Counted from the first letter of the stretch, positions 897-62,103 are shown. The stretch: 64,000 nt of DNA from an archaeon (GCA_018657065.1 JABHXU010000008.1:6308-70307); one strand, 5' to 3'. Numbers and translations are program-made. Notes: generated from the sequence alone by a model not told the origin.

Positions 897-1027
897 TAAA
901 AATCTGACATGAGAACGCTATTCTTGTCATAAATGACAAAGTATCACTCTCGCCCTTTTATTAGAATCAGATTTTTAACTATGGAAATCGACCTAAAGTC
1001 GGGGTTTTAAACCCTTAAATTTCCATA
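897..1027. repeat. Two tandem branched hairpins (intergenic structured element)
   Basis: TAAAAATCTGA(897-907)/TCAGATTTTTA(967-977) and TATGGAAAT(980-988)/ATTTCCATA(1019-1027) inverted repeats, each with inner hairpins. Confidence 0.6.
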
Positions 1028-1084
1028 TAATTTTAATTAAAAAAGTAGAAACCTATTTATACTTTATTTTTTAATTTAATTCCT

Positions 1085-1657
1085 ATGAACATAAGTTTGT
1101 ATAATTATTTTATTCAAAACAATCAGAATTATTCTATTGAAGTTCTAAAAAATCAAGCTCTTAAATCTGGATATAGTCAAATTGAAATTAATGAAGTATT
1201 AAGTGTAATTAATTCTCAAAAGAATATAGTAACTCAAACTAATAATCAAACTGAATCAATCATGTTTGGATTCCAAGCAAATTCAGGAAATATTGCATGC
1301 GGCCTTTACTTTACAAATAATAGAATTATTGCTTCAAGATTTAAAGGTTCTTTTGGACTTTGTTTTTTTTTAGGATATATTGGTGAATTAATATGTAATT
1401 TAAAAAATCAAAAAAAATTTAGAACAAATTTACAGCTAACTCCGCAAAACTTATATATGTCAAATAATCAAAACCTCCAAATTCCTGTTTCTTCAATTAC
1501 AAATATAAAAATGAGAAAACCTTCTATTTTTTCACCTGGTCAAATGATGATTAAAGGTCATAGAGATTATAAGTTTTCATTTACATATAAAACACAATTT
1601 TTTCAAGCTCTTGAAGCTTTAAAACAATCATTTCCTAGTTTAATTAATGTTCTATAA
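1085..1657 (+). CDS. Hypothetical protein (possible PH-like C-terminal domain)
   Basis: 190-aa ORF; GLYFTNNRII and IPVSSITNI resemble bacterial PH-domain strands. Confidence 0.6.
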   Translation: MNISLYNYFIQNNQNYSIEVLKNQALKSGYSQIEINEVLSVINSQKNIVTQTNNQTESIMFGFQANSGNIACGLYFTNNRIIASRFKGSFGLCFFLGYIGELICNLKNQKKFRTNLQLTPQNLYMSNNQNLQIPVSSITNIKMRKPSIFSPGQMMIKGHRDYKFSFTYKTQFFQALEALKQSFPSLINVL

Positions 1658-1732
1658 ATTAAAGTTAAACAAATCTGTTTAAAATTTTTAAACACAAGTT
1701 TTTTATAGTATCTTTAAAAAGAAAGTTTTACA

Positions 1733-1939
1733 ATGAATAATAGAGGAAGATTAACAGTAATGATGCCGTTCATTTTATCTACTGCATTCACATTTATTGA
1801 TATTTTTTTATTTAGAGTAATTTCTGGATTTTATTTTATTAATCCTGCATTAGTAATAATGAGTTTTTTAGAATTATACTTACTTTCAGCTGTTACCTCA
1901 TTATTTATTAAAAAAGAAATCGACAGAAAACATATATAA
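1733..1939 (+). CDS. Small membrane protein
   Basis: 68 aa, two hydrophobic segments, TATA-like element upstream. Confidence 0.55.
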   Translation: MNNRGRLTVMMPFILSTAFTFIDIFLFRVISGFYFINPALVIMSFLELYLLSAVTSLFIKKEIDRKHI

Positions 1940-1962
1940 ACAATTAAATCAAATTATTTTTA

Positions 1963-2358
1963 ATGGAACCTATTTTTATTTTATTTATAATTATTGGAAG
2001 TATTATATTTTTGTGGCTTGGCTTTAAAATAGGACAATTAACTAAAGATCAAGAATGGGTTGAAAAACTTCCTAAAATCAAACAAGATTCTCTTGACCGA
2101 TCAAAAAGTGTTGTTAAAGGTCAAGTTTCTGAACAATTAGCTCCATTTCTACCTGATTTCCCATTTAATTCAAGCGAATGCAAATTCTTAGGAAAACCTA
2201 TTGATTTACTTGTGTTTAAAGGAATGGACGATAATAACATCAATGAAGTAATTTTTGTTGAAGTTAAAACAGGAAAATCTACTCTTTCAAGTCAAGAAAG
2301 AAAGCTTAGAGACGTAATTAAAGAAAAGCGTGTGAAATGGCAAGAATATAGAATTTAA
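1963..2358 (+). CDS. Membrane-anchored Holliday junction resolvase-like PD-(D/E)XK endonuclease
   Basis: N-terminal TM helix; GQVSEQLAP, FLGKPIDLLVF, FVEVKTG motifs. Confidence 0.85.
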   Translation: MEPIFILFIIIGSIIFLWLGFKIGQLTKDQEWVEKLPKIKQDSLDRSKSVVKGQVSEQLAPFLPDFPFNSSECKFLGKPIDLLVFKGMDDNNINEVIFVEVKTGKSTLSSQERKLRDVIKEKRVKWQEYRI

Positions 2359-2437
2359 AGGCTTTTTTTAAACTGTTTAGTTTAATTCTATTTAACTATG
2401 GATATTTAAATCTATTCACTACTCTAGAATAGGTAAG

Positions 2438-4213
2438 ATGCAACAAATTGCCACTTTAGATGACAAAATTCTTTCCATTAGAGCTACAGACAGTACTGCA
2501 AATCCAATTAACGAAGCTATTAATGCATTTGGACATGCTCTAAAACGAGCTGGTCTCTACTCCAGATTTAATAGAAGAGTTCCATCAAGAAAAACTGGAG
2601 GATTTAAATTTGCTGAAGTTATGGCTTCTGAAAATTATGGATTAAATTTTCCAGCTGGCTTAGATGTTTTTATTGCTCTTGACCCAGAATCCATGTCTGA
2701 AAATTTAGAATATTATACATCTAGATTTGATAATGGAAACACCTTAGTAATTTTAGATGATAAAAGATTATTAGATCCAGCTTTTGATCCAGTAAAAGAA
2801 TATTTATCTGATTTTCAGTTAGATAACACCACATTTCAATTTATGCATCTTCCATTAAGTAAACTTTCTGATGGAGACAAAAATTTAATTAATACTGCTA
2901 TAGGATATTTAGGTCAACAACTAGATGTTCCACTAGATATTCTTAATGATGTTTTTGCACAATCTTTTAGTGGTTTAAAACCTCCATTATTAAAAAAATT
3001 AAAAAATTCACTTGCTGCAGGATATAATCTTGAACAGGAAATTGAAAAATTTGATCTACCTAAGTTTGAATTTAATGATTTATCTGAATATGGATATATG
3101 CACGCCAATCAAGTTCTTGCTGAAGCTTTGCTTGAATTAGGTGTTAATTTTACAGCTGCTTATCCAATTACACCAGCTACTAGTATTATAGAAGTTATGA
3201 AAAATGAATTATGGGCAAGATATGGACCTGGTTCTTTCGTTCAAGCTATGGATGAAAGATCTGCTCTTGCAATTGCAATTGGAAGAGTATGGGGAGGCAT
3301 TCAAAAAGGAACTGAAAGAGTTGCAGTTGTTACTTCAGATCCTGGAATCTCTTTAATGAGTGAAAATCTTGGTGTAGCTTATGATTTACCAATGTTAATT
3401 GTAAACGTAATGAGAGGTGGATATGTTAGTACTGGTGATCCTACTGGTGTTAAACAAGGTGCTCTTAGACAAGCAAAATCTCCAACTCATGGTGACGCAT
3501 TATTTCCAGTAATTGCTCCTAGAACTGTTGACGAAATGTATAGTGCTGCTGCAAACGCATATAATATTATTGAAGAATTATGTATGCCAGTTATGTTTTT
3601 AAGTGATGGTGGAATGTCAGTAAGAAACGAAACTATTCATTTAGATAGTTTAACTGAAGGATTAAAAATTCCTGAAATAAAGGCACATCCTGACAGAACT
3701 GTCTTAACTGGATTATCTTCTAAACCTGATGGACGCCCAATAAAAGGATATCATCATGAAGATGCATTGGCTGAAGCAAAAAGATATAATGATAGAATTC
3801 AAAAATTAAGAGATGATGACTTGTTAATTAATAAAAGAGAAGATTTAGATTTTTATGCTCCTGAAGGAAAAGACAAAAAAGATATTGCTGTCTTAGCTTG
3901 GGGTTCAACTTGGTACGCTGCTAGAGAAGCTGTTGAAATTCTTGGAAGGCAAGGATATAATGCTCATCTAATTTCAACTCAACAAGTATTCCCATTACAA
4001 GATAGTCTAATTGATCAATTAGCTGAATATAATCATGTTATTTTACCTGAGCTAAACTTTACAGGACAATTAGCTGAAATATTGAAAACTGAATGTGACT
4101 CAAGAATGGATATTAATAACATCTATTCAATTGATCCTCAATCCAATGAAATGTTTATTCCAGACGAAATAGTTGCTGAAGTAAAAGAAATATATAAAGG
4201 TGCAAAAAAATGA
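2438..4213 (+). CDS. Divergent 2-oxoacid:acceptor oxidoreductase alpha subunit (gamma-alpha fusion)
   Basis: AYPITPATS, MDE, TSDPGISLMSE, WGST, PELNFTGQL motifs; KorA-like length. Confidence 0.85.
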   Translation: MQQIATLDDKILSIRATDSTANPINEAINAFGHALKRAGLYSRFNRRVPSRKTGGFKFAEVMASENYGLNFPAGLDVFIALDPESMSENLEYYTSRFDNGNTLVILDDKRLLDPAFDPVKEYLSDFQLDNTTFQFMHLPLSKLSDGDKNLINTAIGYLGQQLDVPLDILNDVFAQSFSGLKPPLLKKLKNSLAAGYNLEQEIEKFDLPKFEFNDLSEYGYMHANQVLAEALLELGVNFTAAYPITPATSIIEVMKNELWARYGPGSFVQAMDERSALAIAIGRVWGGIQKGTERVAVVTSDPGISLMSENLGVAYDLPMLIVNVMRGGYVSTGDPTGVKQGALRQAKSPTHGDALFPVIAPRTVDEMYSAAANAYNIIEELCMPVMFLSDGGMSVRNETIHLDSLTEGLKIPEIKAHPDRTVLTGLSSKPDGRPIKGYHHEDALAEAKRYNDRIQKLRDDDLLINKREDLDFYAPEGKDKKDIAVLAWGSTWYAAREAVEILGRQGYNAHLISTQQVFPLQDSLIDQLAEYNHVILPELNFTGQLAEILKTECDSRMDINNIYSIDPQSNEMFIPDEIVAEVKEIYKGAKK

Positions 4214-5403: not shown

Positions 5404-5423
5404 TTTGTTTTATTCAAATTTAT

Positions 5424-6772: not shown

Positions 6773-6773
6773 C

Positions 6774-7295: not shown

Positions 7296-7320
7296 TTTTT
7301 TATCTCTCCTACTTTATTCC

Positions 7321-7875: not shown

Positions 7876-8005
7876 TATCTGGAATTTAAAAGACTAGAAA
7901 GTTTTTTTAAATACTTTTTGGTATTATACTAACAAAATCTTTAAATAATCCCTGATCTTTAAAATTTGGATAACCTTTAAATACTTGGGGTTTTTGCTTT
8001 CTTCT

Positions 8006-9047: not shown

Positions 9048-9048
9048 T

Positions 9049-9465: not shown

Positions 9466-9466
9466 T

Positions 9467-26026: not shown

Positions 26027-26307
26027 ATTCAATTAAACTTGGTAAATATCAACATCCTAAATAAAAGCTCTGGCTTTTATTGGGATCCTAGAAATCCAAA
26101 GATTTCTATGATTTTAAAGGTAATTTTTACAATGTTTTAGGTGTTGCTAGACATAGTGAAACATTAGAAGAATATGTAGTATATCAAGGATTATATGATT
26201 CAAAAGAATTTGGGAAAAATCCAATTTTTGCTAGACCTATTAATATGTTTAATGATTTAAAAGAAATTAATGGAGAAAAAATTCATAGATTCAAATTTAT
26301 TAAATAA
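26023..26307 (+). pseudogene. DUF1653-family gene interrupted by a 57-nt insertion
   Basis: MNSIKLGKYQH|FKGNFYNVLGVARHSETLEEYVVYQGLY...RP..MF...RF; ATGA overlap with folA; insert carries TAA and TAG in frame. Confidence 0.85.
26056..26112. mobile_element. 57-nt double-hairpin insertion element
   Basis: AATAAAAGC-TCTG-GCTTTTATT and TAGAAATC-CAAA-GATTTCTA hairpins; precise removal restores the DUF1653 frame. Confidence 0.65.
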
Positions 26308-34404: not shown

Positions 34405-37400
34405 TTATTTAAAATTTTTAAGAACATGTTCTATAACATCTTTAGGTAAATTAAGTTGTTCCATATATGTTTTTGCTTGATCTTTGTTTGCAAAACCTTG
34501 AGCTTTAATTCTGTCTTCCCAATGATATTTCAAAGCTTGTATAGTTTCTTCATTGCTTCCTGTTTTAGGTTTATTAAATCCTAAATGAAGTTTATTAAAT
34601 TTTACTTCCATCCAAACAGTCGCAACAATTGCTAAAACTATTAAAACACCTATTAATATAGGTGTCATTGGACTAGGTTCAGTATAATCAATCATATCTG
34701 CTATAGCCATTCCTTTAATATTTTCAAGACAATCTTTTGATATCTTTCCTTTAACCCTATAATTAAAATTTGCAGGTCTATCCATTTCTGCAAAATGCCA
34801 AGCAATTATTGAGTCTTCCTTAATTATTTTATAATCTTCTACTTCAAACTCAATTTCATCAATATATTCTGCTAAACATTTAGGAATATATAAGTGATAA
34901 TTTGCTTCACCTAGATTTTTTTGAGGATTTAAATTAATTTCAATATCAGTCATTCCAGATTCTTCATCATAACTAAAACTATATGATTGTTCAATGTGTT
35001 TTCCTGTTTCTTCACCTTTTAATAAATCTTCATCTGAGTAATATCCGTCACCTTCTTCTTCAAATGTGTCAATTGTATCATCATCAACAACACTATCTAC
35101 TTGTTCACAACTGTCTTGATTGATCAAATGAAATATGATTGATTTTTGTGTATCTCCACATTTTAATGTTAAATCATTTTGTCCTTTTTTTGCTTTAATT
35201 GTGTCAGTTACACCTTTATATTGTCCTGTATTTAACTTATATCTACATGAATCACTTCCATCAAAATCATAATCAAGTTTAATATAAGTTTCATCGTAGC
35301 AAGTTTTATATGTAAGATCTGCAACAGGAACATTAATTTCTAAATTATAACTCTGCACAATATTATCACCACAATCTGCAACACATTCATTTCCCCATTC
35401 ATTATTTTCACATTTAAATGATCCTTGAATTTGTTTTTTGTCTGCACAGGTTTTAATACAACTCTTAGTAGCACCAGTACTACAACAATTTGCTAAACCA
35501 TCTTCTTGATCTATTTTTCCATCACAATCATTATCTTTTCCGTCACACTTTGTTTCTGTTACTTCATAATCTAATAAACTAGAATAATCACAAGAAGGAA
35601 TAAACCCATCTAACCCACAAAATAATTCTAATTCAGCACATACTCCGTCTGGATCACAGCCAATTGGATCTCCTTCATTACATTCACATCCTTCAGCGAC
35701 TTGCCCATTACAATTATGATCAATTTGATCACAAATTTCTTCTTGTCCTGGATACACTACATTATTTGAATCATCACAATCTGTTCCAAAGGTATTACAT
35801 GCTCTTTCTATATTATTTCCATCAATAAATGAATTAATACAATCAATAGAAATATTAGCGTAATTATCTTTATCTAAATCACAAGTCTCATCTATTTTTC
35901 CATCGCAATCATTATCAAGTAAATCACAAGTTTCATTTTGTTTTATGTCTAAACAAATAAATTCTCCGCCTACACAAGTCTTTTTTTGATCTTTACAAAT
36001 TCCTAAACCACTAGATGCTTCATCACATAAAGGTATATCTTTATCAGCAAGATCATCAATAACTCCATTACAGTCATTGTCATCTCCATCACATTTTTCT
36101 TTTCCAAAATTAGTGATTTCACATTCACATCCATCACTTGCGTCTTTGTTTGCATTACCATATCCAGATTCACAACTGATGTCACCAGGAGAATATTGAC
36201 ATGGATAAAAGTGAAGTGCTTGTTCAAAAAAAGAAGTGCAATCTTCAATATCAGCACAATCAATAAAATCATCACAATCATCGTCTTGATCATTATCACA
36301 AACTTCATTTTGTGCTGCTGGACATCCTTGCCATTGGCCGTTCACACAATCTGCTTGTCCTACACCACAAATTCCATGAAATATTTCTGAGCAAGGTTTA
36401 GAGTCACCAGGAGTACAAGTAAATCCTTCATCTGTTTGCCCATCACAATCATTATCTTTTCCATCAGGTATTTCAGTTGCACCATCATAAATAGTATTGT
36501 CTGAGTCATCACAATCTTCATTATTGTTGTTTGATGTTACATAATGGTCATCATTATCTAAATCTTCACCAATTTGAAATGTTTTAACTTGAGATGTTGA
36601 TGTTCCAAAATTATTACATTTATTGGTTGTATCAATAGAAACTACTGATAAATTTGCACTATAATCACCTGGATTAGTTGTTTCCCATGAAACTGTAAAA
36701 TCTTGAGGTGTATTAGATACTGCGTTTTTTCCAAATCTATCTGTAACAGTATAAGCAACTGCGTCAGAATCTCTATCAGTTATAGTTAATGTATAATCTG
36801 ACATAAACATAAATACTTCAGCTAAAGAAGTATCTTGTAAATTACATTCATCAATATAAGTATAATCCCAATCTTGAAACTCCATTAGTTTTTTTCCATT
36901 AAAATTAACCCTATAACTTGTATCAGTTAATTCACTTTGAGAAACAGAAAAATCACTTATTTCACATCTACATGTATCTGGTGAAGGTGATAAAGTTATG
37001 GTCATTGTTTGCTCAACAGGAACCATTGTTGCTTGATCACACTTATTATCAGGAACAGTTGAAATCATTGTAATTTCATATTGACCTGGTGCAGTGTCTT
37101 TACTTGTTTCCCAGAGGAATTCGAAGTCGTGAGTTGTACTTCCACTTATTCCCCATGTATCAGTTTTAGGAAATCCACTTTCTGAAGTAGATGCACCAAC
37201 TTTTTTTACATCTGCGAACATGTTTGTTGTTGCATTAATCCAATCGTTATATTCTGGAGAGGGATAATGAGATGTACCAGTGGAAAGTGCAGATTGGGTT
37301 GTTGCTTCAAGTTCAGTATCTGTTAAAATACTAATCGGAAATCCAGCTTCCGCGCAACTTTGAATTGCTTGTGTAAATTCTGCTTTGCAATTTTGTGCTA

Positions 37401-37767
37401 TTTTCAAAGAGTTAATTGTATAGTCACTTTTCCTTCCTGTACCTGAAACTGCAAATTTTACTCTTCCGGACAAATAATTCGAGGGAAAAAATCTTAGTAA
37501 ATATATACCTGGCTCAGCAAGTGTAACATCATAAAAACTATTACCACCTGAAGATTTTCCATTTGGAGCTAAAGAAGGAATCATTGAAGTAACATCAACA
37601 CAACTCTCATCAACACATTTCCAGCCAATTACAATTACATCTGTAACTGGTTGATTTTGTTCATTCTCCCAAATGAATTTTTTATAAATTTCTGCATAAG
37701 AAAAACTAGAGATTAATATCATGTAAAACAAAAATAGTAGTGATAAAATAACTCTTTTTTTTAACAT
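34405..37767 (-). CDS. Large surface protein with Cys/Asp-rich (MopE-related, Ca-binding-like) repeats
   Basis: Signal peptide; repeated E.CDG.DNDCDG..D; C-terminal TM anchor. Confidence 0.85.
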   Translation of the reverse strand: MLKKRVILSLLFLFYMILISSFSYAEIYKKFIWENEQNQPVTDVIVIGWKCVDESCVDVTSMIPSLAPNGKSSGGNSFYDVTLAEPGIYLLRFFPSNYLSGRVKFAVSGTGRKSDYTINSLKIAQNCKAEFTQAIQSCAEAGFPISILTDTELEATTQSALSTGTSHYPSPEYNDWINATTNMFADVKKVGASTSESGFPKTDTWGISGSTTHDFEFLWETSKDTAPGQYEITMISTVPDNKCDQATMVPVEQTMTITLSPSPDTCRCEISDFSVSQSELTDTSYRVNFNGKKLMEFQDWDYTYIDECNLQDTSLAEVFMFMSDYTLTITDRDSDAVAYTVTDRFGKNAVSNTPQDFTVSWETTNPGDYSANLSVVSIDTTNKCNNFGTSTSQVKTFQIGEDLDNDDHYVTSNNNNEDCDDSDNTIYDGATEIPDGKDNDCDGQTDEGFTCTPGDSKPCSEIFHGICGVGQADCVNGQWQGCPAAQNEVCDNDQDDDCDDFIDCADIEDCTSFFEQALHFYPCQYSPGDISCESGYGNANKDASDGCECEITNFGKEKCDGDDNDCNGVIDDLADKDIPLCDEASSGLGICKDQKKTCVGGEFICLDIKQNETCDLLDNDCDGKIDETCDLDKDNYANISIDCINSFIDGNNIERACNTFGTDCDDSNNVVYPGQEEICDQIDHNCNGQVAEGCECNEGDPIGCDPDGVCAELELFCGLDGFIPSCDYSSLLDYEVTETKCDGKDNDCDGKIDQEDGLANCCSTGATKSCIKTCADKKQIQGSFKCENNEWGNECVADCGDNIVQSYNLEINVPVADLTYKTCYDETYIKLDYDFDGSDSCRYKLNTGQYKGVTDTIKAKKGQNDLTLKCGDTQKSIIFHLINQDSCEQVDSVVDDDTIDTFEEEGDGYYSDEDLLKGEETGKHIEQSYSFSYDEESGMTDIEINLNPQKNLGEANYHLYIPKCLAEYIDEIEFEVEDYKIIKEDSIIAWHFAEMDRPANFNYRVKGKISKDCLENIKGMAIADMIDYTEPSPMTPILIGVLIVLAIVATVWMEVKFNKLHLGFNKPKTGSNEETIQALKYHWEDRIKAQGFANKDQAKTYMEQLNLPKDVIEHVLKNFK

Positions 37768-42748: not shown

Positions 42749-42898
42749 GGCCTGATCAAGATGAGGGGGAGGCTAAATTTAATACAACAGGCAAGTGCCT
42801 TAGGGAATTGTTAAAGCTCATAAAAACTTTGACACACAGGAAACGTAAGTGACTGTGTTTACCCATACTTTACCTCAGAAACTCATGATACACAGGCT
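42749..42898 (+). ncRNA. Candidate structured non-coding RNA (unknown family)
   Basis: TTTATATA at 42718-42725; end pairing GCCTG/CAGGC; three internal hairpins; T-run after 42898; GC-richer than flanks. Confidence 0.45.
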
Positions 42899-48430: not shown

Positions 48431-48600
48431 TAAAAAATGAGCCTGCGAGGATTACAACCAACTGATACCGGTTGACATGTCAGAAAGCAACTGACAAATT
48501 GACTAGCTTTCTGATCATCCTTGAAATCTTTGATTTCTATGAGCTAGCGTTTGCTAGATATAAAATCTAGCTTAGAATAAAAAATGAGCCTGCGAGGATT
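48431..48600 (-). repeat. Duplicated tRNA-Arg 3' end (23 bp) enclosing a hairpin-rich spacer
   Basis: TAAAAAATGAGCCTGCGAGGATT at 48431-48453 and 48578-48600. Confidence 0.85.
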
Positions 48601-48690
48601 TGAACCCCGGTCATCCGGTCCGAAGCCGAACGCACTATGTGCACTATCGTGACCAAATCGTACACGATATCCAGACTATGCTACAGGCCC
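48585..48690 (-). tRNA. tRNA-Arg(TCG) with a 32-nt D-loop insertion/intron
   Basis: Acceptor GGGCCTG/CAGGCTC-A; anticodon arm TTCGG-CT-TCG-GA-CCGGA; T-loop TTCAAAT; removing about 48637-48668 gives 74 nt. Confidence 0.85.
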
Positions 48691-48738: not shown

Positions 48739-49029
48739 TTATTTCTTGTTTTTAGACATAAGTATTTCAATTGTACTTACTCTAACTTGTTTTCCTTCTT
48801 TATTTTCAAACTCTTCACTATTAATATTTACATCATCTACTTTAGCTTGACCTTCAAGAAATCTTTTACATGCTACTTCAGCAACATCAACTGCTCTACT
48901 AATAAATTTTCCCCGAGCTTTGATAATAACTTCAGAAGCATTTTTTGTTGTGAACTGCATTACAACTCCAGTAACATAGTTCATAAATGGTTTACCACCT
49001 ATAAAGATACTATTATCTTTGTCTGTCAT
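48739..49029 (-). CDS. albA: Chromatin protein Alba
   Basis: IFIGGKPFMNYV, KARGKFISRAVDVAE, VSTIEI. Confidence 0.95.
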   Translation of the reverse strand: MTDKDNSIFIGGKPFMNYVTGVVMQFTTKNASEVIIKARGKFISRAVDVAEVACKRFLEGQAKVDDVNINSEEFENKEGKQVRVSTIEILMSKNKK

Positions 49030-49040
49030 TTCTTACCACC

Positions 49041-49235
49041 TCAAAGTGTTTCTCTAGACTTAACTCTTCTAGTAACATAACCGGTAATAATATTTCTTAA
49101 TTTTTTTGATGAGATCTCTGCGTGTTTTTCAACAATTGCTTTATTTTGATCAAAATCTTCTGTAAAATCATCAAAATGATTATCTACTAGTTCCTCTGTA
49201 ATTCTTTTAGCTGCTTTAGTTTTAATACGTCCCAT
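49041..49235 (-). CDS. rps17e: 30S ribosomal protein S17e
   Basis: MGRIKTK...FTEDFDQNK...SKKLRNIITGYVT; start reassigned to 49235. Confidence 0.93.
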   Translation of the reverse strand: MGRIKTKAAKRITEELVDNHFDDFTEDFDQNKAIVEKHAEISSKKLRNIITGYVTRRVKSRETL

Positions 49236-49332: not shown

Positions 49333-49404
49333 GCGTCTGTGATCTAATGGCTATGATCCTGGCCTTCCAAGCCGGGTATCCGGGTTCAAATCCCGGCGGA
49401 CGCA
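49333..49404 (+). tRNA. tRNA-Gly(TCC)
   Basis: Acceptor GCGTCTG/CGGACGC-A; anticodon arm CTGGC-CT-TCC-AA-GCCGG; GGTTCAAATCC. Confidence 0.93.
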
Positions 49405-49487
49405 TAACTTTCTTTAGGATTTGAACACACGGTCACTATCGTTCTCGTGCCACTCGCTTTGCTCGATGGAATCCCGGCGGACGCATA
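49389..49487 (+). repeat. Duplicated tRNA-Gly 3' end (18 bp) enclosing minihairpins
   Basis: AATCCCGGCGGACGCATA at 49389-49406 and 49470-49487. Confidence 0.85.
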
Positions 49488-49611
49488 TCTTTTCTTTATA
49501 TGAACATAAACATTAGAAATCAAAGGTTTTAAAACTTTTCAACTCCTAGAATTAAAAAACTTTATAAACGTCCATTAAATCCAACACTGTATATTTTGAG
49601 GTGTTTTTATT

Positions 49612-50176: not shown

Positions 50177-50271
50177 TATTTTTAAATAAAATTTCTCTAG
50201 GATTTAAACGATCATTTATTAAAAAATTCAAAGATAAACTTAATATGCAATGATAACTTTTGTATATATTT

Positions 50272-50637
50272 ATGTCACGTTATCCTAAAATTTCTAATAC
50301 GCCAAATAAATTTGATAGTCTAGGAAATAAACTTTGCAGAAATTGCGAAAATAAAATTGCAGAAAATAGAAGACATTATTGTTCTAAAAAATGTATGAAT
50401 GAGTTTAATAGAAACAATTCTTGGTTTTGGGTTAGAAAAGATGTTCTTAGAAGAGATAGATATACTTGTCAGATATGCAAAAACCGAATGAGAAAAATAT
50501 TTCTTGATGTTGATCATATAATTCCTATAAATATGGCAACTCATCGCAATCCTTATGACAAAAACAATCTTAGAACACTTTGCAAAGAATGTCATAAAGC
50601 AAAAACTAAATTAGATAGAGAAGTATTTTCAAATTAA
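50272..50637 (+). CDS. HNH endonuclease with N-terminal zinc finger
   Basis: CRNC..YCSKKC; RDRYTCQIC, VDHIIP, NLRTLCKECH; ATG 50272. Confidence 0.88.
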   Translation: MSRYPKISNTPNKFDSLGNKLCRNCENKIAENRRHYCSKKCMNEFNRNNSWFWVRKDVLRRDRYTCQICKNRMRKIFLDVDHIIPINMATHRNPYDKNNLRTLCKECHKAKTKLDREVFSN

Positions 50638-51496: not shown

Positions 51497-54400
51497 TTAA
51501 TAATCTTTCAATATATCAAAAATAACATTGTAACTTGGGTTATCCCATGTACTTCCACCGAATGCTCTAAGTGTTGCCTCAGCTTGAGAATGAGACCAGC
51601 CTAAATTTTTCATGCCATAATACCCAACAAACATTCCAGTTCTATGAACTCCATATGTACAATGTACATATGATTTTTGACCAGAAGATGCAATGTTAAT
51701 TGCATTTCTAACTCTACTGATTAATTCTGCTTCAGCTGCACTTTCTCTAGGATATCTAATATAACCTCCTAATGCAATACATGTATGGCTTAAACCTGCT
51801 GCTTGCGCATTTGCAGCTGCATTAGGATCTTCACAAGCCAAGTCAACAATAGTTGTAAATCCTTGTTCTTTTAATGTTAGAAAATCATCTGCATTAGGTT
51901 GTCCACCTACAAAAATTGAACTTGTTAAGGACCTATAAGTTAACCACATGTCACTATTACCACTACCACCTCCACCTAACCCTAATCCCCCCATAGTTCC
52001 TGAAGCAGATCCTCCACTAACACCAACACCTAAATGATTAGCTACACCTCTTTCACCACCAGGATCTGATGGTGTGTTTACAAGTAACGGTGTTCCTCCT
52101 TGATCAGCAACTAAAGTTGTTGAACCTCCTCCATCCATATTAACTCCATGTGTTGCTTTATGATGAACAAATATTTCTCCTAATTCTCTTAAATTTACTC
52201 CTTCACTACTTTCTGCTCCTCTACCATTAACAACAACGATATACATTAAATCATTTTTTTCATCTAATCCAATACCTGTTCTTGGATCAGCTACTGCGTG
52301 CCCATCTTCAATCTTATCAGGACTAAATCTATCTAAAACCCCATTTTCATCTGAAACTGTTTGAAAACCTGTAACTGCATGATAAGGGTCAACAGAATTA
52401 CCAAATCCAACTTTATTTTCTTTACTTGCAACAAAGGTAGCATCATTAATTTTAAGATCAGGACTTGAATATACATCACCAGATGACATTGCATAATATC
52501 CTACATTCTCATTCCCTCCACCATATTCAAAACCTCCACCATTAATAGCTAATACTAAATCATTAACTGGTCCGTACATAGATAAAAATTGTGATGTTTG
52601 CATTAATGTTTCTTGTCTAGGTGTAACAAAAAAATTTGGATCTTTTGTTAAGTCAATTTTTACAACATAATAAACAACGTGTCTAGGAATATCAATTTCT
52701 GGATTAACTGAATTATCAACTTTTTTCATCTCAATTCCAGGATATAATTCTTGGAAATCACCTGGAGGTATATCTAAAAATCCACCTGTTCCTCCACCTA
52801 ACTCTGAAAATCCGCCTCCTCCATCTGAATTTAAATCATCTGGATTTCCTGATACAGATATTCCTTCTCCTTTAAAATGTAAGTAACCTGAGGCATAAGC
52901 TTTTTGATCTTTATTTAAATTTTCAACTTCAACTATTAACGTGTTTTCGTTAGCAACCAATTCACCTTTAGAATTTCCTTCTAAACTCCAACTACATTTA
53001 TCTTCTTTACTACAATCTCCAGTAGCTTCACTAAGGGATTTTAAAGTCTTATCTTCTTTACCTATCACATACCAACTATCAACACATGCATCACCACCAT
53101 CTTTAAGATCAATTATAAATTTTCCAGAACCTCCAACATCTTCAAAACTTGGATAACCATAAGTGTAAGGAGTTGCAAAAAATCTAGTTTCTTTTTCAAG
53201 AGTTCCTTTAATATTTTTATCATCTTCTATTGGTTCATACGAAATTGAATCGGATGGAATATCACAAACATTTCCTGTACATGATAAAGATGTACCACCT
53301 ATAAACATATTTTCATAACTAAGAAGCATTTTATCAATTGGACTATACCACCAAGATGGATTTTTAATTGCAGACAAACTCTCAGAACTACAAGAGTCAA
53401 GACCATAGTAACATTCTAAAAGAGCTTCACCTAAAGTTAAACAAGAATTCCTACATGTGTCATCTCCTGAAATAGTATATACTTCTTTTGTGTCTTCATC
53501 CCAATCTTTAATCATACTATCACAAGTTCCCTTATAATTATATATCATTGAATCATCATATTTAGTACATGATGCATTTCCCATAGCTTCAGGAATTAAA
53601 TGCAATCCTTCCGGATTTTCTCCAGTATCTGGATTATTTCTCCAATACGTGTCTTCTGAAGGTTTAATTAAATGTCTATATACATATCCCATAAAATATG
53701 GTTCAGGTTTAGTTGATCCACCACAAGTCACAACAGCCATAGGTGTAAAATGTGAAACTTGAGCACTATAATAATAATAATTTTCATCTTCATCAAATCC
53801 CAAGCTTGGATATGTTCTCCATATATCTCCTAATTCATCATAATAAGCTATTTGTGGTGCAATTTTGGGATATGCTAAAGGTAATTCTTCTTTTCTTAAT
53901 CCAATAGTAACTTTTAATGGAGGATCAAATATTGCTCCACTAGGAAGCCCTTCATAAACAATATTTCCTAAAACAACTTCATTACTTAATTCGTTAAAAT
54001 TTTTATCAAGTAAATTAAATGCAATTTTTTCAATAGGTTTTCCATTTTCATCAATAGCAACAGTATCTTCACTAACTGACACAACCATATTTTCATCACT
54101 AGAAAAAAATGTAGATCCTGCAGAGATTGATCCCTCAATTTTAAAACTACTCAATCGTTTTAAAGAATATTGAAATTCTTCAATTTCTACTGAAGTATTA
54201 TTTCTAAAAATTTTAACTGGAAAATTTAGATCAACAAAAACAACTTCTTCATTAATCAAAACATTTGATGATGGTTTTCCGTATTCAACATTATAATCTT
54301 TAATAAATGAAAAATTTCCAACACATGAAACTAATTTTAAATCTACATAAGAAGCAACAGCATTTTCTGAATTAAAACCAAACAATTCAACAGCATTTGT

Positions 54401-54574
54401 TGTAGTATGATCTAAGCAAGTATCAATATAATATTTAGTATTTGTTTTTTCTAAAGATAACCCTTCACTAGGTGCTTCAACCCCTCTAGGAAGTTTATAA
54501 GCTAAGAATGACACTGAAATTAAGATAATAAATCCAATTAAAACAAAAATTGAAATACTATGAGCCCTACCCAT
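51497..54574 (-). CDS. Large membrane-anchored protein with phosphodiester glycosidase (NAGPA-like) and C-terminal CX5R phosphatase domains
   Basis: N-terminal TM; AINGGGF, DPRTGIG, VNGR, NMDGGGST; GGQP...YVHCTYGVHRTG. Confidence 0.8.
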   Translation of the reverse strand: MGRAHSISIFVLIGFIILISVSFLAYKLPRGVEAPSEGLSLEKTNTKYYIDTCLDHTTTNAVELFGFNSENAVASYVDLKLVSCVGNFSFIKDYNVEYGKPSSNVLINEEVVFVDLNFPVKIFRNNTSVEIEEFQYSLKRLSSFKIEGSISAGSTFFSSDENMVVSVSEDTVAIDENGKPIEKIAFNLLDKNFNELSNEVVLGNIVYEGLPSGAIFDPPLKVTIGLRKEELPLAYPKIAPQIAYYDELGDIWRTYPSLGFDEDENYYYYSAQVSHFTPMAVVTCGGSTKPEPYFMGYVYRHLIKPSEDTYWRNNPDTGENPEGLHLIPEAMGNASCTKYDDSMIYNYKGTCDSMIKDWDEDTKEVYTISGDDTCRNSCLTLGEALLECYYGLDSCSSESLSAIKNPSWWYSPIDKMLLSYENMFIGGTSLSCTGNVCDIPSDSISYEPIEDDKNIKGTLEKETRFFATPYTYGYPSFEDVGGSGKFIIDLKDGGDACVDSWYVIGKEDKTLKSLSEATGDCSKEDKCSWSLEGNSKGELVANENTLIVEVENLNKDQKAYASGYLHFKGEGISVSGNPDDLNSDGGGGFSELGGGTGGFLDIPPGDFQELYPGIEMKKVDNSVNPEIDIPRHVVYYVVKIDLTKDPNFFVTPRQETLMQTSQFLSMYGPVNDLVLAINGGGFEYGGGNENVGYYAMSSGDVYSSPDLKINDATFVASKENKVGFGNSVDPYHAVTGFQTVSDENGVLDRFSPDKIEDGHAVADPRTGIGLDEKNDLMYIVVVNGRGAESSEGVNLRELGEIFVHHKATHGVNMDGGGSTTLVADQGGTPLLVNTPSDPGGERGVANHLGVGVSGGSASGTMGGLGLGGGGSGNSDMWLTYRSLTSSIFVGGQPNADDFLTLKEQGFTTIVDLACEDPNAAANAQAAGLSHTCIALGGYIRYPRESAAEAELISRVRNAINIASSGQKSYVHCTYGVHRTGMFVGYYGMKNLGWSHSQAEATLRAFGGSTWDNPSYNVIFDILKDY

Positions 54575-54689
54575 ACATAATTTCAGAAGGTTTCTACTAT
54601 ATAAATTTTAGCAATATTTATAAACAAAAGTTGATTCTTTTAAGGAAGAGAGAGAAGAAACTGGAAGTTTGTTTCTCAGTGGCGGATTA

Positions 54690-55052: not shown

Positions 55053-55097
55053 TTACCTTTTCAGTACACCTCATAAAAACACTCGGAGGACAATAAA

Positions 55098-55817: not shown

Positions 55818-56527
55818 AATCATTCAAAACATTCGACAAGGAAAAAGTATCTTTCAACTTAGCTAAGCTAAAAAAAGGCGGAGAAATGTTTGAAGTAATT
55901 ATTGATCCTGACAAAATCCTTGAGTTCAAAAAAGGAAAACTTAAAGCAAAAGAATCTGTAATGTATGAAAAAGTTTTTTTTGATGCAAAAAAAGGTTTAG
56001 AAGCTTCAAGCGAAATAATGAACAAAGTGTTTAACACAGAGAATGTAGTTGAAGTAATTGATGTAATACTTAATGACGGTGAAATTCAATTCACTCAAGA
56101 GTATAGAGAGGAAAAACAAAAAGAAAAGTTTAATAGAATTTTAGAGATTATTTCTAGAAATGCTATTGACGCAAAAACAGGACTACCTCATCCAAGAAAT
56201 AGAATAGAAAGTGCTATGGAAGAGGCTCGTGTTAAAATTGATGTATTTAAAGACGCAGAAGAACAAGTTGATGACATTGTTCATAAACTTAAACCAATTA
56301 TTCCTATAAAACTTGCAATGAAAGAAATTCAAATAAAAATTCCAGCTCAATATACTGGGACTGCATATGGAGTTGTTTCAAAGTATGGAAAAATATTAAT
56401 GGATAACTGGTTAAATGATGGATCATGGCTATGTTCTGTTGAAATTCCAGCTGGAATTCAAAATGATTTTTTTGATGCATTAAATAGATTAACACAAGGT
56501 ACAGTTGAGTCCAAAGTTTTAAGATAA
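55814..56527 (+). CDS. Ribosome maturation factor SBDS
   Basis: GEIQFTQEYR, TGLPHPRNRIE, EIPAG. Confidence 0.93.
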   Translation: MKSFKTFDKEKVSFNLAKLKKGGEMFEVIIDPDKILEFKKGKLKAKESVMYEKVFFDAKKGLEASSEIMNKVFNTENVVEVIDVILNDGEIQFTQEYREEKQKEKFNRILEIISRNAIDAKTGLPHPRNRIESAMEEARVKIDVFKDAEEQVDDIVHKLKPIIPIKLAMKEIQIKIPAQYTGTAYGVVSKYGKILMDNWLNDGSWLCSVEIPAGIQNDFFDALNRLTQGTVESKVLR

Positions 56528-56588
56528 CTCAGAATCAAAAGATTCTGTGGGATCTGAAAATTCGAGCAAAGCTCAAATTTAAAGATAA
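56521..56588. repeat. Double-hairpin insertion between SBDS and rrp4 flanked by AAGATAA direct repeats
   Basis: CAGAATC-AAAA-GATTCTG and GAGC-AAA-GCTC hairpins; AAGATAA at 56521-56527 and 56582-56588. Confidence 0.6.
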
Positions 56589-56602
56589 ATTATGGTGAAA
56601 AA

Positions 56603-58791: not shown

Positions 58792-58793
58792 AA

Positions 58794-59015
58794 ATGAAAT
58801 ACACAAAATACGAAAAAGCCAGGATGATTGGTGCTAGAGCACTACAATTATCAATGGGTGCTCCTTTTATGATTAAAATTAGCAAAAAAGAACTAGCAGA
58901 GGTTAAATTTAACCCTGTTAGAATTGCTACATTAGAATTTAATAAAGGTGCATTGCCTATTAATGTACTAAGATCACATCCTGACACAAGAGTAAAACAG
59001 GAAGTTCAAGGTTAA
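58794..59015 (+). CDS. rpoK: RNA polymerase subunit K (Rpo6)
   Basis: YTKYEKARMIGARALQLSMGAP. Confidence 0.95.
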   Translation: MKYTKYEKARMIGARALQLSMGAPFMIKISKKELAEVKFNPVRIATLEFNKGALPINVLRSHPDTRVKQEVQG

Positions 59016-59047
59016 ATTTATTAAAATTTTTATTTTTTATATTTACT

Positions 59048-59809
59048 ATGAACGCACTAATAGTTTACCACAATAAAAATAGTATTATTCTACCTTATAT
59101 TATTTCAAAATTTCCTAAATATACTGCTAAATCTAGAGTAAAATTAACTATTGATGATTATAAAAATAAAGAAATAATTATTGTTATAGGTGGTGATGGA
59201 ACTTTTTTAAGAGCAAGTCATCTAAATACCAACATTCCAATGTTTGGTATCAATCCTAAACCTCATAGAAAGGTTGGATTTTTTACAAGAGCTAATAACT
59301 TAAATTTTAAAAAAAAAATTGAATTAATTCTAAAAAATGATTTTTTTATAACTAAAACACTCAGATTAGAAGCAAAAATTAATGATCAATTGATTAAAGA
59401 TTTATGCTTAAATGAAATATATGTAGGGCATCATAAACCATATTATATGTTTAATTATGATTTGTCCATTAATAAAAAAACTGAGTTTCAGAGAAGTTCA
59501 GGTGTATTGATTGGAACTCCAAGTGGATCTCATGCTTGGATTGCTTCAGCTGGTGGGAAAAAATTAAATATTAAATCTAGAAAATATCAATTAATTGCTA
59601 GAGAACCTTACATTAGTAGATTGACATCTAATTATAATTTAACTAAATTAAATCTAGTTGAAAAAGATATTGTTAAAATTAAATGTAAAACTAAAAGTGT
59701 TTTAGTTATGGATTCAATTGGAAAAGTTCATAAATTAAACCCAAAAGATATTGTTGAAATTTCTGTATCAAAACACGATTTAAAAATAATCTCTTTTCAA
59801 AAATCTTAA
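59048..59809 (+). CDS. nadK: NAD(+) kinase
   Basis: GGDGTFLRA, LNE, GTPSGSHAW..SAGG. Confidence 0.88.
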   Translation: MNALIVYHNKNSIILPYIISKFPKYTAKSRVKLTIDDYKNKEIIIVIGGDGTFLRASHLNTNIPMFGINPKPHRKVGFFTRANNLNFKKKIELILKNDFFITKTLRLEAKINDQLIKDLCLNEIYVGHHKPYYMFNYDLSINKKTEFQRSSGVLIGTPSGSHAWIASAGGKKLNIKSRKYQLIAREPYISRLTSNYNLTKLNLVEKDIVKIKCKTKSVLVMDSIGKVHKLNPKDIVEISVSKHDLKIISFQKS

Positions 59810-59834
59810 ATACTCGTTTTCTAAATTAATAGTT

Positions 59835-60215
59835 ATGACAGAAAAAAATCAGATATATAAATGTGATAAATGTGGAAATATTGTTGAAATTCTTGACAAT
59901 GGAATGGGTACATTAGTATGTTGTGCTCAACCTATGAGATTGTTTAAAGAAATTGAACAAGATGCAGGACAAGAAAAACATGTTCCTGTTGTTGAAAAAA
60001 CACAAACAGGAATAATAGTTAAAGTTGGTGATATTCCTCATCCAATGGATGAAGATCATTATATTCAATGGATTGAAGTAATTGCAAAAGGCGTTATTTA
60101 TAGAAAACATCTTCATCCAGGTGATGAACCAATTGCAGAATTTCCAATTGCAAGTGAAATGTTTACAGTTAGAGAATATTGTAACAAACACGGTGTTTGG
60201 AAAACTAGTAGTTAA
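59835..60215 (+). CDS. dfx: Desulfoferrodoxin (2Fe superoxide reductase)
   Basis: CDKCGN...CC, EKHVP, HPM..DHYIQWI, CNKHG. Confidence 0.95.
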   Translation: MTEKNQIYKCDKCGNIVEILDNGMGTLVCCAQPMRLFKEIEQDAGQEKHVPVVEKTQTGIIVKVGDIPHPMDEDHYIQWIEVIAKGVIYRKHLHPGDEPIAEFPIASEMFTVREYCNKHGVWKTSS

Positions 60216-60233
60216 TTTTTTTTATTTCTTTAA

Positions 60234-60719
60234 TTACTCAAATTCATTCCAACTAACTTCTCTACCTGGATATGCAACTTTCTTAAATGGCCATTTTTCA
60301 TGAATCCATTTTTTTACAGAAGAAAATAAAATTTTATCTAATCCATTTGCTATTTCACTTTTCCTAACCCACATAATAATTACGGCGTCATAATTTGGGT
60401 TATCAGATGGATAAATATACATACATCCAAGACATTCAGATTCATCTAAATTCATCATAGTGTAAGCGAATGAGGTTCTTCTTTGAAATTCTTTTTGATG
60501 CCATCCTAAATCAATCAAATCTTGTTCATAAGATAACTCTTTAGTTGGCCAATTATGATTAGGTCCAAATGGTTTTGTTTTTTGTAAATGATCTATACTA
60601 CTCATTACAGCATCATAATCTAATTTAACATCATTTATTGTAAGCATTCTTAAGCGAAATTTCTCAGTTTCTAAACTTTTAGGAATCTTAAAATCTCTAG
60701 GAACAAATATTTTTTTCAT
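60234..60719 (-). CDS. GNAT/RimJ-like acetyltransferase family protein
   Basis: FRLRML..DV.LDYDAVMSS, SFAYT, CLGCMYIYP, WPF. Confidence 0.75.
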   Translation of the reverse strand: MKKIFVPRDFKIPKSLETEKFRLRMLTINDVKLDYDAVMSSIDHLQKTKPFGPNHNWPTKELSYEQDLIDLGWHQKEFQRRTSFAYTMMNLDESECLGCMYIYPSDNPNYDAVIIMWVRKSEIANGLDKILFSSVKKWIHEKWPFKKVAYPGREVSWNEFE

Positions 60720-60780
60720 TTTAATTATAATGATAAATTAAGTATTATTAATGTTTTGTATTAATCATTTAATTTTTTCG

Positions 60781-61335
60781 TTATTGTAAAATCTTTCTTA
60801 CTAATTCAGGAAACTTTTCAGTTCCCATACCAGCTTGAGTATAATGCCCTTGATTTTTTAATTCGATAATTTCTCCTCCGAGTGCATTATGAAAAATTAT
60901 CAAACTGTCTTTACCTTTAGGATCTTCGTTATCAGAAGTAAACATAATAATTTCTTCTATTCTGTTTGAAACAGTTTTATCAATATCATAAGTATAAAAT
61001 TTTTCTCTAGAACTATCTCCTTTATCATTAACTTTCCAAGGTGCAACAAGAATAAGTTTGAAAATTTTAGTTTTAGTTTCTCCAAGCCAACGAACTAAAA
61101 ATGCACAACCACAACTGTGACCTACTAAAATTGTATTTTTATCAACATCATATTTTTCAAATTCAGATTTAAATTTTTCATAATCAGGTTGCCAAGGAGA
61201 AGGCATTATTGGAGTTTTTGTTTTTATTCCTTTTTCAATAAGTTGCTTTTTAGTCCAAGGAATCCAATGTTTATTATAGGATGAATCATCAGAAGTTGAA
61301 GGACATCCATGAATTATGATACATTTCTTTTCCAT
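60781..61335 (-). CDS. RBBP9/YdeN-family alpha/beta hydrolase (second copy)
   Basis: IIHG, HWIPW, GHSCG, GH. Confidence 0.85.
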   Translation of the reverse strand: MEKKCIIIHGCPSTSDDSSYNKHWIPWTKKQLIEKGIKTKTPIMPSPWQPDYEKFKSEFEKYDVDKNTILVGHSCGCAFLVRWLGETKTKIFKLILVAPWKVNDKGDSSREKFYTYDIDKTVSNRIEEIIMFTSDNEDPKGKDSLIIFHNALGGEIIELKNQGHYTQAGMGTEKFPELVRKILQ

Positions 61336-61475
61336 AACAATTAATGATTGTTAATAGTTTAAAAGATTTTCTTAAGATAATATCAAAGATAAATTACACA
61401 TAGCATTAGAATTAAATAAAAGTTGTTCAATTAAATTTATGAAGTTTTATAGACGAAATAGCTTTAATAAATTTA

Positions 61476-61811
61476 TTATTTTTTGTATCTTGTTGCGATA
61501 TAATCTATTATGATACCATAAAGAATTCCTGCAAAAAATCCTGGCATATCCTTAAATGATGTTGCAAGATAAAATGAACCACTTATTATAAAACCTAGTA
61601 GTGCTCCTCTTAACAAAATTTTAGAAATTCTTTTAGTTTTGATAGGCGATGCTAAACCTATAACAAGACCTATAATAATTCTATTTACCCAAGTTGCTAA
61701 TATGAATAACTCATTTCCTACAAAACCCATCCTTAAACTTATACCAATAATACAAAATATTCCAAGTATTGCACTTGTTACAATAGATATGGTTAATCTT
61801 TTATTTTTCAT
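61476..61811 (-). CDS. Four-TM hypothetical membrane protein
   Basis: GIFCIIG, NRIIIG, RGALLG, AGILYGIIID. Confidence 0.7.
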   Translation of the reverse strand: MKNKRLTISIVTSAILGIFCIIGISLRMGFVGNELFILATWVNRIIIGLVIGLASPIKTKRISKILLRGALLGFIISGSFYLATSFKDMPGFFAGILYGIIIDYIATRYKK

Positions 61812-61936
61812 TTATTAAGTATAGAGTATTAGCATATATAAATTTATAGTAGATATTAATGTGCCAATTATAGGGTAAAAATAAAAAAGAAATTTCTATT
61901 GTTAGTAACTCAAATCTATTGTATATAATATTGGGA

Positions 61937-62103
61937 TCCCTGTTAAATACTTTTACTCTACGAAGTGTGGGAAAATTGCGTCCGCAAAGTAAAATTTCCA
62001 TTTCCAATAAATTCGAACGTAGTGAGTCTATGTGTGCGTAGCACTGGGGAGTTCAGTTCCTTCAAAAGAGCGAAGCGTTACATCAAGAACAAGTATCAAG
62101 GGA
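61937..62103 (+). repeat. Intergenic element rich in GNA-triloop minihairpins
   Basis: ACGAAGT, GAACGTAGTGA, GTGCGTAGCAC, GCGAAGC enclosed by TCCCT/AGGGA and ATACTT/AAGTAT. Confidence 0.55.

Follow-up and report, generated by a model that had tools for sequence, protein, structure and literature searches.

Short folded elements beside tRNA genes of a marine archaeon, bounded by displaced tRNA ends and possibly integrative in origin

The subject here is a set of short, non-coding elements that lie beside tRNA genes in a 64,000-nucleotide (nt) stretch of archaeal DNA (the window; positions are counted from its first letter), and elsewhere in the same genome. The window is C10:6308-70307 of the genome under study, G000 (1.49 Mb in 25 contigs, 26-30% GC with 28% overall, completeness 95.65%); C1-C13 denote its contigs, G-numbers related genomes and L-numbers loci examined. 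On the far side of each element stands a second copy of the end of the adjoining tRNA gene, the direct repeats being 16-22 nt long across the elements. Because an intact tRNA accompanied by a displaced fragment is an established mark of tRNA-gene integration, the three kinds of element distinguished below (types 1 and 2 on the 3′ side of tRNA genes, and others on the 5′ side) are read here, with about even confidence, as miniature tRNA-targeting integrative elements that lack an integrase and are mobilized in trans, most likely by a tyrosine recombinase. The archaeal identity of the stretch follows from Pfam matches in the window to Alba, ribosomal protein S17e, an LSM protein, aIF2-gamma, SBDS and exosome Rrp4. 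The runs that hold it are seawater or marine metagenomes, and the organism is Woesearchaeota-like, the records of its family relatives bearing the titles Candidatus Woesearchaeota or Nanoarchaeota.

The clearest case in the window follows the tRNA-Gly(TCC) gene, and its parts are given with the other features in Table 1. The type-1 fold consists of three helices, with P1, the pairing of the left arm with the displaced tRNA end, closing P2 and P3. Both-side changes are found in 6 of the 7 pairs of P2, the interior of P3 varies among type-1 copies, and the spacer between tRNA and element is 9-186 nt long in other copies, often with an oligo-T run. An initial annotation of the window had listed 49427-49469 among eight loci of a single dispersed family of modular hairpins, and this segment is the core of a genuine repeat, with a 39-nt copy that is 100% identical by BLAST at C8 and 90% identical at C3. 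Between copy B and the flank shared with G004 the window has ~75 extra nt (49488-49575), among them a degenerate hairpin of the GAAATC type dealt with below, and this extra sequence suggests further old insertions at the tRNA-Gly locus.

Table 1. Coordinates of the features discussed, in the window unless a contig is named; z, locus fold z-score against dinucleotide shuffles (200 shuffles for 897-1030 and 61930-62112).
Feature	Coordinates	Strand	Basis or remark
tRNA-Gly(TCC), intact	49333..49404	+	ARAGORN and Rfam tRNA, 58.4 bits
Copy A of direct repeat: last 16 nt of tRNA-Gly, T-loop position 58 to discriminator	49389-49404	+	sequence
Short T-rich spacer, tRNA to type-1 element	49405..49415	+	sequence
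Type-1 left arm, inverted copy of T-loop and 3′ T-stem strand	49416..49426	+	pairs with copy B (helix P1); tRNA-specific in every copy
Helix P2, covarying 5-bp (base-pair) stem closing conserved loop TCACT..GTTC	49428..49449	+	alignments A1 and A2
P3, conserved 3-bp base, variable interior, then GG	49450..49469	+	covariation in 3/3 base pairs
Copy B, displaced tRNA-Gly 3′ end (position 58 to discriminator, plus TA), then T-run	49470..49487	+	exact 12-mer; 14/14 match 66-67 nt downstream of tRNA
tRNA-Arg(TCG), D-loop-interrupted	48585..48690	-	partial match to Rfam tRNA (28.5 bits); wrongly called Ala(tgc) with intron by ARAGORN
32-nt D-loop intervening sequence (boundaries +/-3 nt); 48637-48668 in the initial annotation	48636..48667	-	in-silico removal; one contig
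Type-2 element: T-run, covarying hairpin, linker, conserved 23-nt right core (48454-48476)	48454..48584	-	homologues at C4 and C9
Nested 65-nt double-hairpin module in type 2	48477..48541	-	missing from two other full type-2 copies
Copy B of tRNA-Arg 3′ end (position 58 to discriminator), then T6	48438..48453	-	23-nt exact BLAST self-match; 14/14 at 132-133 nt downstream
Separate two-domain structured element, outside tRNA-linked families	897..1030	+	z -4.79; 0/200 shuffles as good
Intergenic double hairpin just after DHFR gene (Pfam)	26050..26115		z -4.2 (+) / -3.6 (-)
Solitary hairpin, like P2 of type 1	42826..42870	-	z -1.05 (+) / +0.32 (-); no R1 match in genome
Intergenic double hairpin between SBDS and Rrp4 genes (Pfam)	56521..56590		z -4.4 (+) / -5.4 (-)
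GC-richer stretch, unstable fold	61930..62112		z +0.99; 169/200 shuffles fold at least as well
GC-rich ~22-nt motif copies	C11:157756-157834; C13:161901-161953; C1:64198-64260; C5:18294-18344; C5:20238-20302	both	sequence

Type 1 has four copies in G000, every one of them after a tRNA gene and in the same orientation to it; each starts with the reverse complement of the host tRNA's T-loop and 3′ T-stem strand and ends in the host's own 3′ end. A covariance model built from these four copies (R1) has 47 matches, spread over 12 of 61 genomes; among the 12 are 9 of the 19 other genomes of the same family, and two weak matches fall outside it. In 28 of the 32 matches re-scored (29 loci) the terminal 15 nt are repeated, with at most 2 mismatches, 9-186 nt upstream on the same strand, and for all 28 such matches the upstream repeat stands directly after the GTTC[AG] of a tRNA T-loop. 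Of the four non-conforming matches, one is a decayed copy, one a degenerate unit of a tandem and one probably false; in the fourth, in G021, P2-like hairpins without a proximal copy lie inside a T-arm intron of a tRNA-Arg. By their ARAGORN labels the host tRNAs include those for Pro, Ala, Ser, Gly, Glu, Leu, Gln, Phe, Ile, Val and Met, and the T-loop variant present in the arm, TTTGAA or TTCGAA, is that of the host in 27 of the 28 copies, one arm being degenerate; the TTCGAA variant is always accompanied by a P2 stem starting GT. Tandem units are present at L018, L037, L029 and L038, and several stand in a row at tRNA-Val. When a genome collection was scanned with the pattern, 24 of the 80 loci listed proved to be real matches, all in archaeal metagenome-assembled genomes; the many bacterial loci among the 80 were chance hits.

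Across the type-1 alignment 88.8% of cells are paired, both-side changes occur in 16 of the 20 pairs, and the covariation score is 0.463, a value attained by none of 500 shuffles (0.169) and compared with at most 0.088 for slid controls, with the proviso that the alignment was fitted to the model structure and the counts accordingly lean towards the model. At loci with a mutated distal copy, the left arm tracks that copy in L011, and the tRNA in L032 and L030, because of which the pairing of P1 looks to have been set at origin and not steadily maintained.

At the orthologous tRNA-Gly(TCC), a type-1 element is present in four of the six genomes of the genus (G000, G001, G002 and G005) and absent from G003; the syntenic gene of G004 is without it and is interrupted by three intervening sequences, of which one lies in the T-arm. 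In G000 the Gly-linked core is closest (0.88) to the core that follows a different tRNA of that genome, not to the Gly-linked cores of its congeners, and that of G002 is similarly closest to the Glu-linked core of G002 (0.91) and not to other Gly-linked cores. Overall the effect is modest, with the nearest partner in the same genome in 8 of 23 cases and a mean identity of 0.64 (n=28) within a genome versus 0.59 (n=225). Such comparisons would be accounted for if the cores either move between tRNAs or are homogenized by conversion, the arms staying tRNA-specific both ways.

The tRNA-Arg(TCG) gene of the window is followed by an element of another kind, type 2. Its copies, too, end in the host tRNA's 3′ end from position 58, the homologues being after tRNA-Thr(CGT) on C4 and tRNA-Arg(CCT) on C9; a further, partial one follows tRNA-Ser(GCT). 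The type-2 core pattern occurs three times in G000 and in 0 of 19 family relatives; to judge from sequence comparison, type 2 is young and lineage-specific, belonging to one species only. The fold of the window copy together with its displaced end (48438-48584) has z -3.2 on the plus and -2.9 on the minus strand. Its nested 65-nt module resembles the in-frame insert of 54 nt that the ogt gene on C11 contains (see below). A C/D-like K-turn in the nested double hairpin was considered and rejected, as the register is unsuitable and a simple helix of 9 bp suffices.

The same tRNA gene has an insert in its D-loop, and once this is removed in silico the gene is called as a standard tRNA-Arg(tcg). 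In DNA run X14, from a related population, there is one contig that skips exactly 48636-48667, though this is weak at a depth of 4.3. The insert is most simply taken as a putative archaeal bulge-helix-bulge tRNA intron. Kinship of the insert with type 1 through a common 9-mer was rejected, the 9-mer occurring six times in the genome, RNase P RNA included, as expected of a chance match.

How general the arrangement is can be gauged from the 38 tRNA calls that ARAGORN, with introns allowed, makes in G000, many of which have intervening sequences and several of which are plainly mislabelled. With a 14-nt probe, a required identity of at least 12 of 14 and, for 3′ ends, a range of 400 nt, a 3′-end duplicate is present downstream of 9 of the 38 and a 5′-end duplicate upstream of 7, for 14 tRNAs in total, while background sequence gives at best 6-10 of 14. 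The displaced copies inspected are in no case followed by CCA. The 5′-side elements at seven tRNAs (C4:20172-20281, and on C5, C8, C12 and C2) are mirror images of the others, having in order a copy of tRNA positions 1 to ~13-17, hairpins, a common core of their own, and an A/T-rich stretch directly before the gene which may be the present tRNA promoter.

As envisaged here, an element would insert at a tRNA end and leave a regenerated gene with the displaced fragment on the far side, a tyrosine recombinase acting in trans having crossed over in the T-loop, or in the D-loop. The displaced copy extends from position 58 to the discriminator for the 3′-side elements and from +1 to the D-loop for the 5′-side ones. 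The elements, of ~55-150 nt, non-coding and hairpin-forming, can stack in tandem and nest, and in type 1 the inverted T-arm copy at the 5′ end pairs with the displaced fragment to give P1, closing the fold with P2 and P3. What has been observed comprises the repeat families, their linkage to tRNAs in fixed orientation, the direct repeats, the covariation, the tandem and nested copies, confinement to one archaeal family and the close likeness of elements at different tRNAs of a single genome; movement, its performance by a tyrosine recombinase and the making of a target-specific arm are what we infer. G000 has three Xer-like tyrosine recombinase genes, the best of them XerA-like with 196.8 bits versus a 220-bit cut-off, and a fourth tyrosine recombinase Pfam hit is below cut-off and without an NCBIfam match. 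On the integron-integrase model the XerA-like protein scores 186 bits versus a 265-bit cut-off. An HNH endonuclease gene is present 83 nt downstream of tRNA-Leu(TAG), at window 50260-50637; as a mobilizing enzyme it was rejected, being single-copy and without link to the elements.

Precedent for most of this is at hand. In archaea, integrases are directed to the T stem-loop, the 3′ end or the 5′ half of a tRNA gene, which is left restored; integration may be repeated in tandem, and within a single plasmid family the range of targets has grown to 14 tRNAs (PMC8371274, in part); a regenerated target and a displaced fragment mark island ends in the Islander work (PMC4383910, in part). With tRNA integrative elements of the pTN3, pT26-2 and SSV types, those described here have in common the regenerated tRNA and displaced direct repeat, the start of the repeat in the T-loop or the 5′ part of the gene, tandem accretion at one tRNA and the use of many tRNAs per family. 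They depart from the textbook case in size, being 55-150 nt and gene-free, in their covarying, RNA-like fold, in the inverted T-arm copy of type 1, in having closely similar cores at different tRNAs of one genome and in that no full-length parent was found. Integrase-less derivatives mobilized in trans are the CIME-like elements of the bacterial literature. No description of elements like the present ones was found in the open full-text literature searched.

Against the integrative-element explanation stand several observations, to which the lean of the covariation counts noted above has to be added. The elements have no open reading frame or integrase, the distance from tRNA to element ranges over 9-186 nt in 28 of 28 cases, and no autonomous partner was found in G000, 60 relatives or viral contigs; the pattern scan of viral contigs gave 10 hits with 0 real matches (best E 0.055), and a viral source was rejected on that ground. 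A site-specific recombinase leaves unexplained how both arms become specific to each new tRNA. Gene conversion could equally fit the cross-tRNA similarity within a genome, and the repeat length of 16-22 nt also fits target-site duplication. The covarying helices and the conserved P2 loop suggest selection on the fold, as would be expected equally of a functional RNA and of a recombination site. Since the folding energy of the window's own type-1 copy (49413-49487) is no better than that of shuffles (z +1.89 sense, +0.08 antisense), the type-1 structure rests on family covariation. No presence/absence polymorphism with identical flanks was obtained, and in two metatranscriptome runs contigs lie over the Alba and S17e genes (48858-49193) only, leaving the elements uncovered and being uninformative on them.

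T-arm introns are present in a congener and in G000 itself. That of the G004 tRNA-Gly(TCC) gene (L041:2266-2433) is 31 nt long, is at the position equivalent to the element and ends TGAAAGT; a similar one, with the same ending, is in the tRNA-Ala(TGC) gene of G000 (C4:16710-16850). ARAGORN misses both genes. In canonical bulge-helix-bulge structures drawn by hand for these two, T-loop UUCA pairs with intron UGAA, with flanking 3-nt bulges in G004, and for the T-arm intron of G021 the partners are UUCG and CGAA.

An origin of the elements as relatives or by-products of archaeal tRNA introns, with the interrupted exon duplicated so that splicing is not needed, and thus as intermediates of intron gain or loss, has to be weighed in a lineage rich in D-arm and T-arm introns of the bulge-helix-bulge kind, which use the same insertion sites. 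It gains from the T-arm intron that G004 tRNA-Gly(TCC) has in place of the downstream element, from its counterpart in the tRNA-Ala of G000, from the intron of G021 with P2-like hairpins and no proximal copy, from the presence of both a D-loop insert and a downstream element at the window's tRNA-Arg, and from the tRNA splicing endonuclease present in G000. Yet types 1 and 2 do not interrupt the tRNA, being outside its mature form; an attempt to draw the bulge-helix-bulge motif of type 1 within another pre-tRNA fold was unsuccessful, and none could be drawn at type-1 or type-2 borders. The 9-mer common to type 1 and the D-loop insert is, as said, a matter of chance, and no sequence homology between T-arm introns and elements was established, so that this origin is judged unlikely. 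The alternative that the elements are small structured RNA genes, made with the tRNA or just after it (as dicistronic transcripts cut by RNase Z) and using tail and arm to act on the tRNA or on processing enzymes, would make sense of the strong covariation, the invariant hairpin loop, the fixed orientation behind tRNAs and the retention at tRNA-Gly(TCC) within the genus. The four G-U pairs of the 5-bp outer stem of P2, read in the tRNA sense, also favor it, although the counts for P2 and P1 are mixed as to the strand of action (in the outer stem of P2, 4 G-U versus 3 A-C cells; 5 versus 4 with inner pairs). In N. equitans tRNA-Val is dicistronic with the C/D box sRNA8 (PMC3491384, in part), which is likewise a small structured element directly downstream of a tRNA in a DPANN archaeon; the elements here differ in having a tRNA-end copy and no C/D boxes, inspection of alignments A1 and A2 revealing neither C/D nor H/ACA boxes in the type-1 consensus on either strand. 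An RNA gene is rendered rather unlikely by the oligo-T run that precedes the element after most tRNAs, by the absence of an Rfam match at E up to 0.5 (in the window tRNAs are the sole matches), by decay of the distal tRNA copy in several loci with the left arm then tracking copy A in some and copy B in others, by the restriction of type 2 to one species, by tandem and nested copies that look selfish and by metatranscriptome contigs that do not cover the elements.

True transposition, in which staggered cuts ~16-19 bp apart, in the T- or D-loop and at the gene end, produce a long target-site duplication that the gene survives, would be casposon-like. Casposons, which insert at tRNA 3′ ends, are recognized by terminal inverted repeats, a duplication of 14-15 bp and their Cas1 casposase. 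The repeats here vary little in length (16-22 nt), the 3′ and 5′ cases are mirror images, and an element with no need of a tRNA-specific att site could spread easily to many tRNAs. In contrast to casposons, no generic terminal inverted repeats are present, the repeats are longer and Cas1 (PF01867) has 0 matches in G000 in a search positive in control genomes, with no other transposase identified. The spacer beside the tRNA varies in length and sequence, which leaves the element without a defined left end; the repeat always begins at position 58 and is variable at its end, and the inverted copy of positions 53-66 is unaccounted for, all of which makes transposition of this sort improbable. Miniature inverted-repeat transposable elements are another point of reference: the present elements are similarly short, non-coding, multi-copy, hairpin-forming and nested, with one in a gene, and are unlike them in the target-derived nature of their arms instead of generic terminal inverted repeats, in having no short fixed target duplication, and in strict placement at tRNA ends with fixed orientation.

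A single modular repeat system spreading through a single-stranded DNA (ssDNA) intermediate, in the manner of IS200/605, REP/RAYT or retroelements and by virtue of stable ssDNA hairpins, was what the initial annotation had proposed for its eight loci, and it is now the least supported reading and a very improbable one. In its favor, hairpins are abundant and some are inserted in other sequences, the internal loop of P2 would, from the alignment, form tandem G-A pairs on the strand antisense to the tRNA, and one of the hairpin types is enriched. However, Y1 transposase (PF01797), TnpB (PF07282) and reverse transcriptase (PF00078), the co-occurring enzymes to be expected of TnpA/RAYT or retroelement movement, have 0 matches each in the 95.65%-complete genome by profile searches that were positive in control genomes (for the first two in 6 and 8 of 14). 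IS200/605 and REP-RAYT insertion takes place next to a short target motif without target duplication, and to our knowledge IS200/605 elements make no target direct repeats. The elements here have the tRNA end as a direct repeat of 16-22 nt at their borders, and the footprint is for that reason one of tRNA-gene integration. A preference for folding as DNA was not borne out either: DNA and RNA parameters on both strands give similar z-scores of -1.9 to -2.7 (mononucleotide shuffles; the 28 top-scoring of 32 rows of alignment A2), leaving DNA and RNA, sense and antisense, indistinguishable. Reverse transcription halting at position 58 was rejected as a source of the displaced copies, with neither a reverse transcriptase gene nor CCA to support it.

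The modules on which the single family had been built were counted on both strands of the whole genome and compared with 8 first-order Markov simulations; of the three, two are not enriched. The GNA/GCGAAGC-type sequences are not above expectation, GC[AG]AAGC being observed 89 times versus 116 +/- 9 and GAGC[AG]AAGC 8 times versus 6.6 +/- 3.2, while GAACG-N0-4-GTGA, with 9 versus 5.0 +/- 2.1, has a weak excess that comes partly from type-1 copies. GAATC-N3-4-GATTC is found 18 times versus 8.8 +/- 3.6, and the longer GAAATC-N3-4-GATTTC is enriched, at 10 versus 1.2 +/- 1.0, the ten representing 5 loci of which 2 are in the window; TGGGATC (54 versus 89) is not. The sequences of the eight loci are all present where they had been reported. 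Their union in one mix-and-match family did not hold, as BLAST and clustering of 168 GC-rich intergenic islands connect the tRNA-associated loci only, and at least four unrelated sequence families had been lumped with two chance-like loci. BLAST of seven intergenic regions against the genome gave significant matches outside the locus for three only, those after tRNA-Gly, after the minus-strand tRNA-Arg and at 897-1084. What does stand of the idea of small hairpin repeats that spread is insertion-like behavior at tRNA genes, in tandem, nested and once inside ogt. Of the folds, those at 897-1030, 26050-26115, 56521-56590 and 48438-48584 beat shuffles; those at 42826-42870 and 61930-62112, two of the eight reported loci, do not, nor does that of the type-1 copy at 49413-49487. 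The signal in the eight loci is partly real, in that part of it exceeds chance.

With 14 of the 38 detectable tRNAs (about a third) having a spare copy of one of their ends beside a very small structured insert, G000 has an unusually dense and clean record of tRNA-gene traffic in a little-studied archaeal group, and the elements, if mobile, would be the smallest tRNA-targeting integrative units known to us. The puzzle is how an element of ~80 nt gains arms that match each new tRNA. A possible resemblance is to folded single-strand attachment sites (integron attC, CTX phage attP), where an imperfect hairpin imitates the duplex target, the target is regenerated and tandem arrays can result; the elements here have no integron integrase and a stem specific to each tRNA. 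On a more speculative and quite unlikely suggestion, type 1 would be a self-targeting mobile DNA that writes inverted and direct T-arm copies at its own ends, creating a tRNA-specific folded attachment hairpin, and would offer a DNA-level route for gain and loss of archaeal non-canonical introns. With sites in common with T-arm and D-arm introns of close relatives, the elements allow the arrival of introns in archaeal tRNA genes to be put to the test; a 2026 preprint on Asgard tRNA introns treats that route as still open (10.64898/2026.10.13.758758, in part). From a practical perspective, standard tRNA finders miss or mislabel several tRNAs in G000.

Outside the tRNA-linked families, the element at 897-1030 has one paralogue (C1:12437-12551), a 63-nt match of 90% identity being found by BLAST from 897-1084. 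Within it, at 984-1017, and at L193-L200, there is a two-hairpin motif in which a stem with a CUAAAG loop is followed by GGGUUUUAAACCC; its first stem covaries, and it is present in four other genomes of the family. Rfam has no match for 897-1030 or for this inner motif. The solitary hairpin at 42826-42870 is probably a relic or a chance match. Part of the GC-richer stretch near the end of the window, 61941-62031 (91 nt), has 76% identity in G003 only, one of five congeners, and Rfam has no match for 61930-62112.

The enriched GAAATC..GATTTC hairpin is the second hairpin at 26050-26115, and it also occurs in two genes. One is ogt (methylguanine methyltransferase; minus strand, L187:~150-205, C11:~157500-157553), where the 54-nt in-frame insert, which would add 18 amino acids if translated, consists of this hairpin and a second one; it is just upstream of the PCHRV active-site motif and absent from the four of four congeners in which the gene was matched. 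The other is the archaeal RNase P RNA (RF00373, 87.7 bits; L188:1-285, C7:10750-11034), in which the tip of P12 is unusually long, at ~85 nt versus ~10 in the model, and contains the hairpin; the GAUGAUG..CUGA of C7 is the normal P12 K-turn of that RNA.

For two genomes placed in this family or genus, the records (L079, L084, L086, L092, L104, L106) bear the title 'uncultured Methanosarcinales archaeon', which clashes with their placement beside G000 and is probably a labelling problem in public records. Two very large proteins are encoded in the window, one of 1120 amino acids (34405-37767) whose repeated MopE-type metal-binding motifs are the direct repeats seen in the DNA, and one of 1025 amino acids (51497-54574) with a phosphodiester glycosidase domain and a dual-specificity phosphatase domain. 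A GC-rich motif of ~22 nt, GGGGCGCG.GGAACGGCGC, has five copies, on both strands, in AT-rich intergenic DNA.

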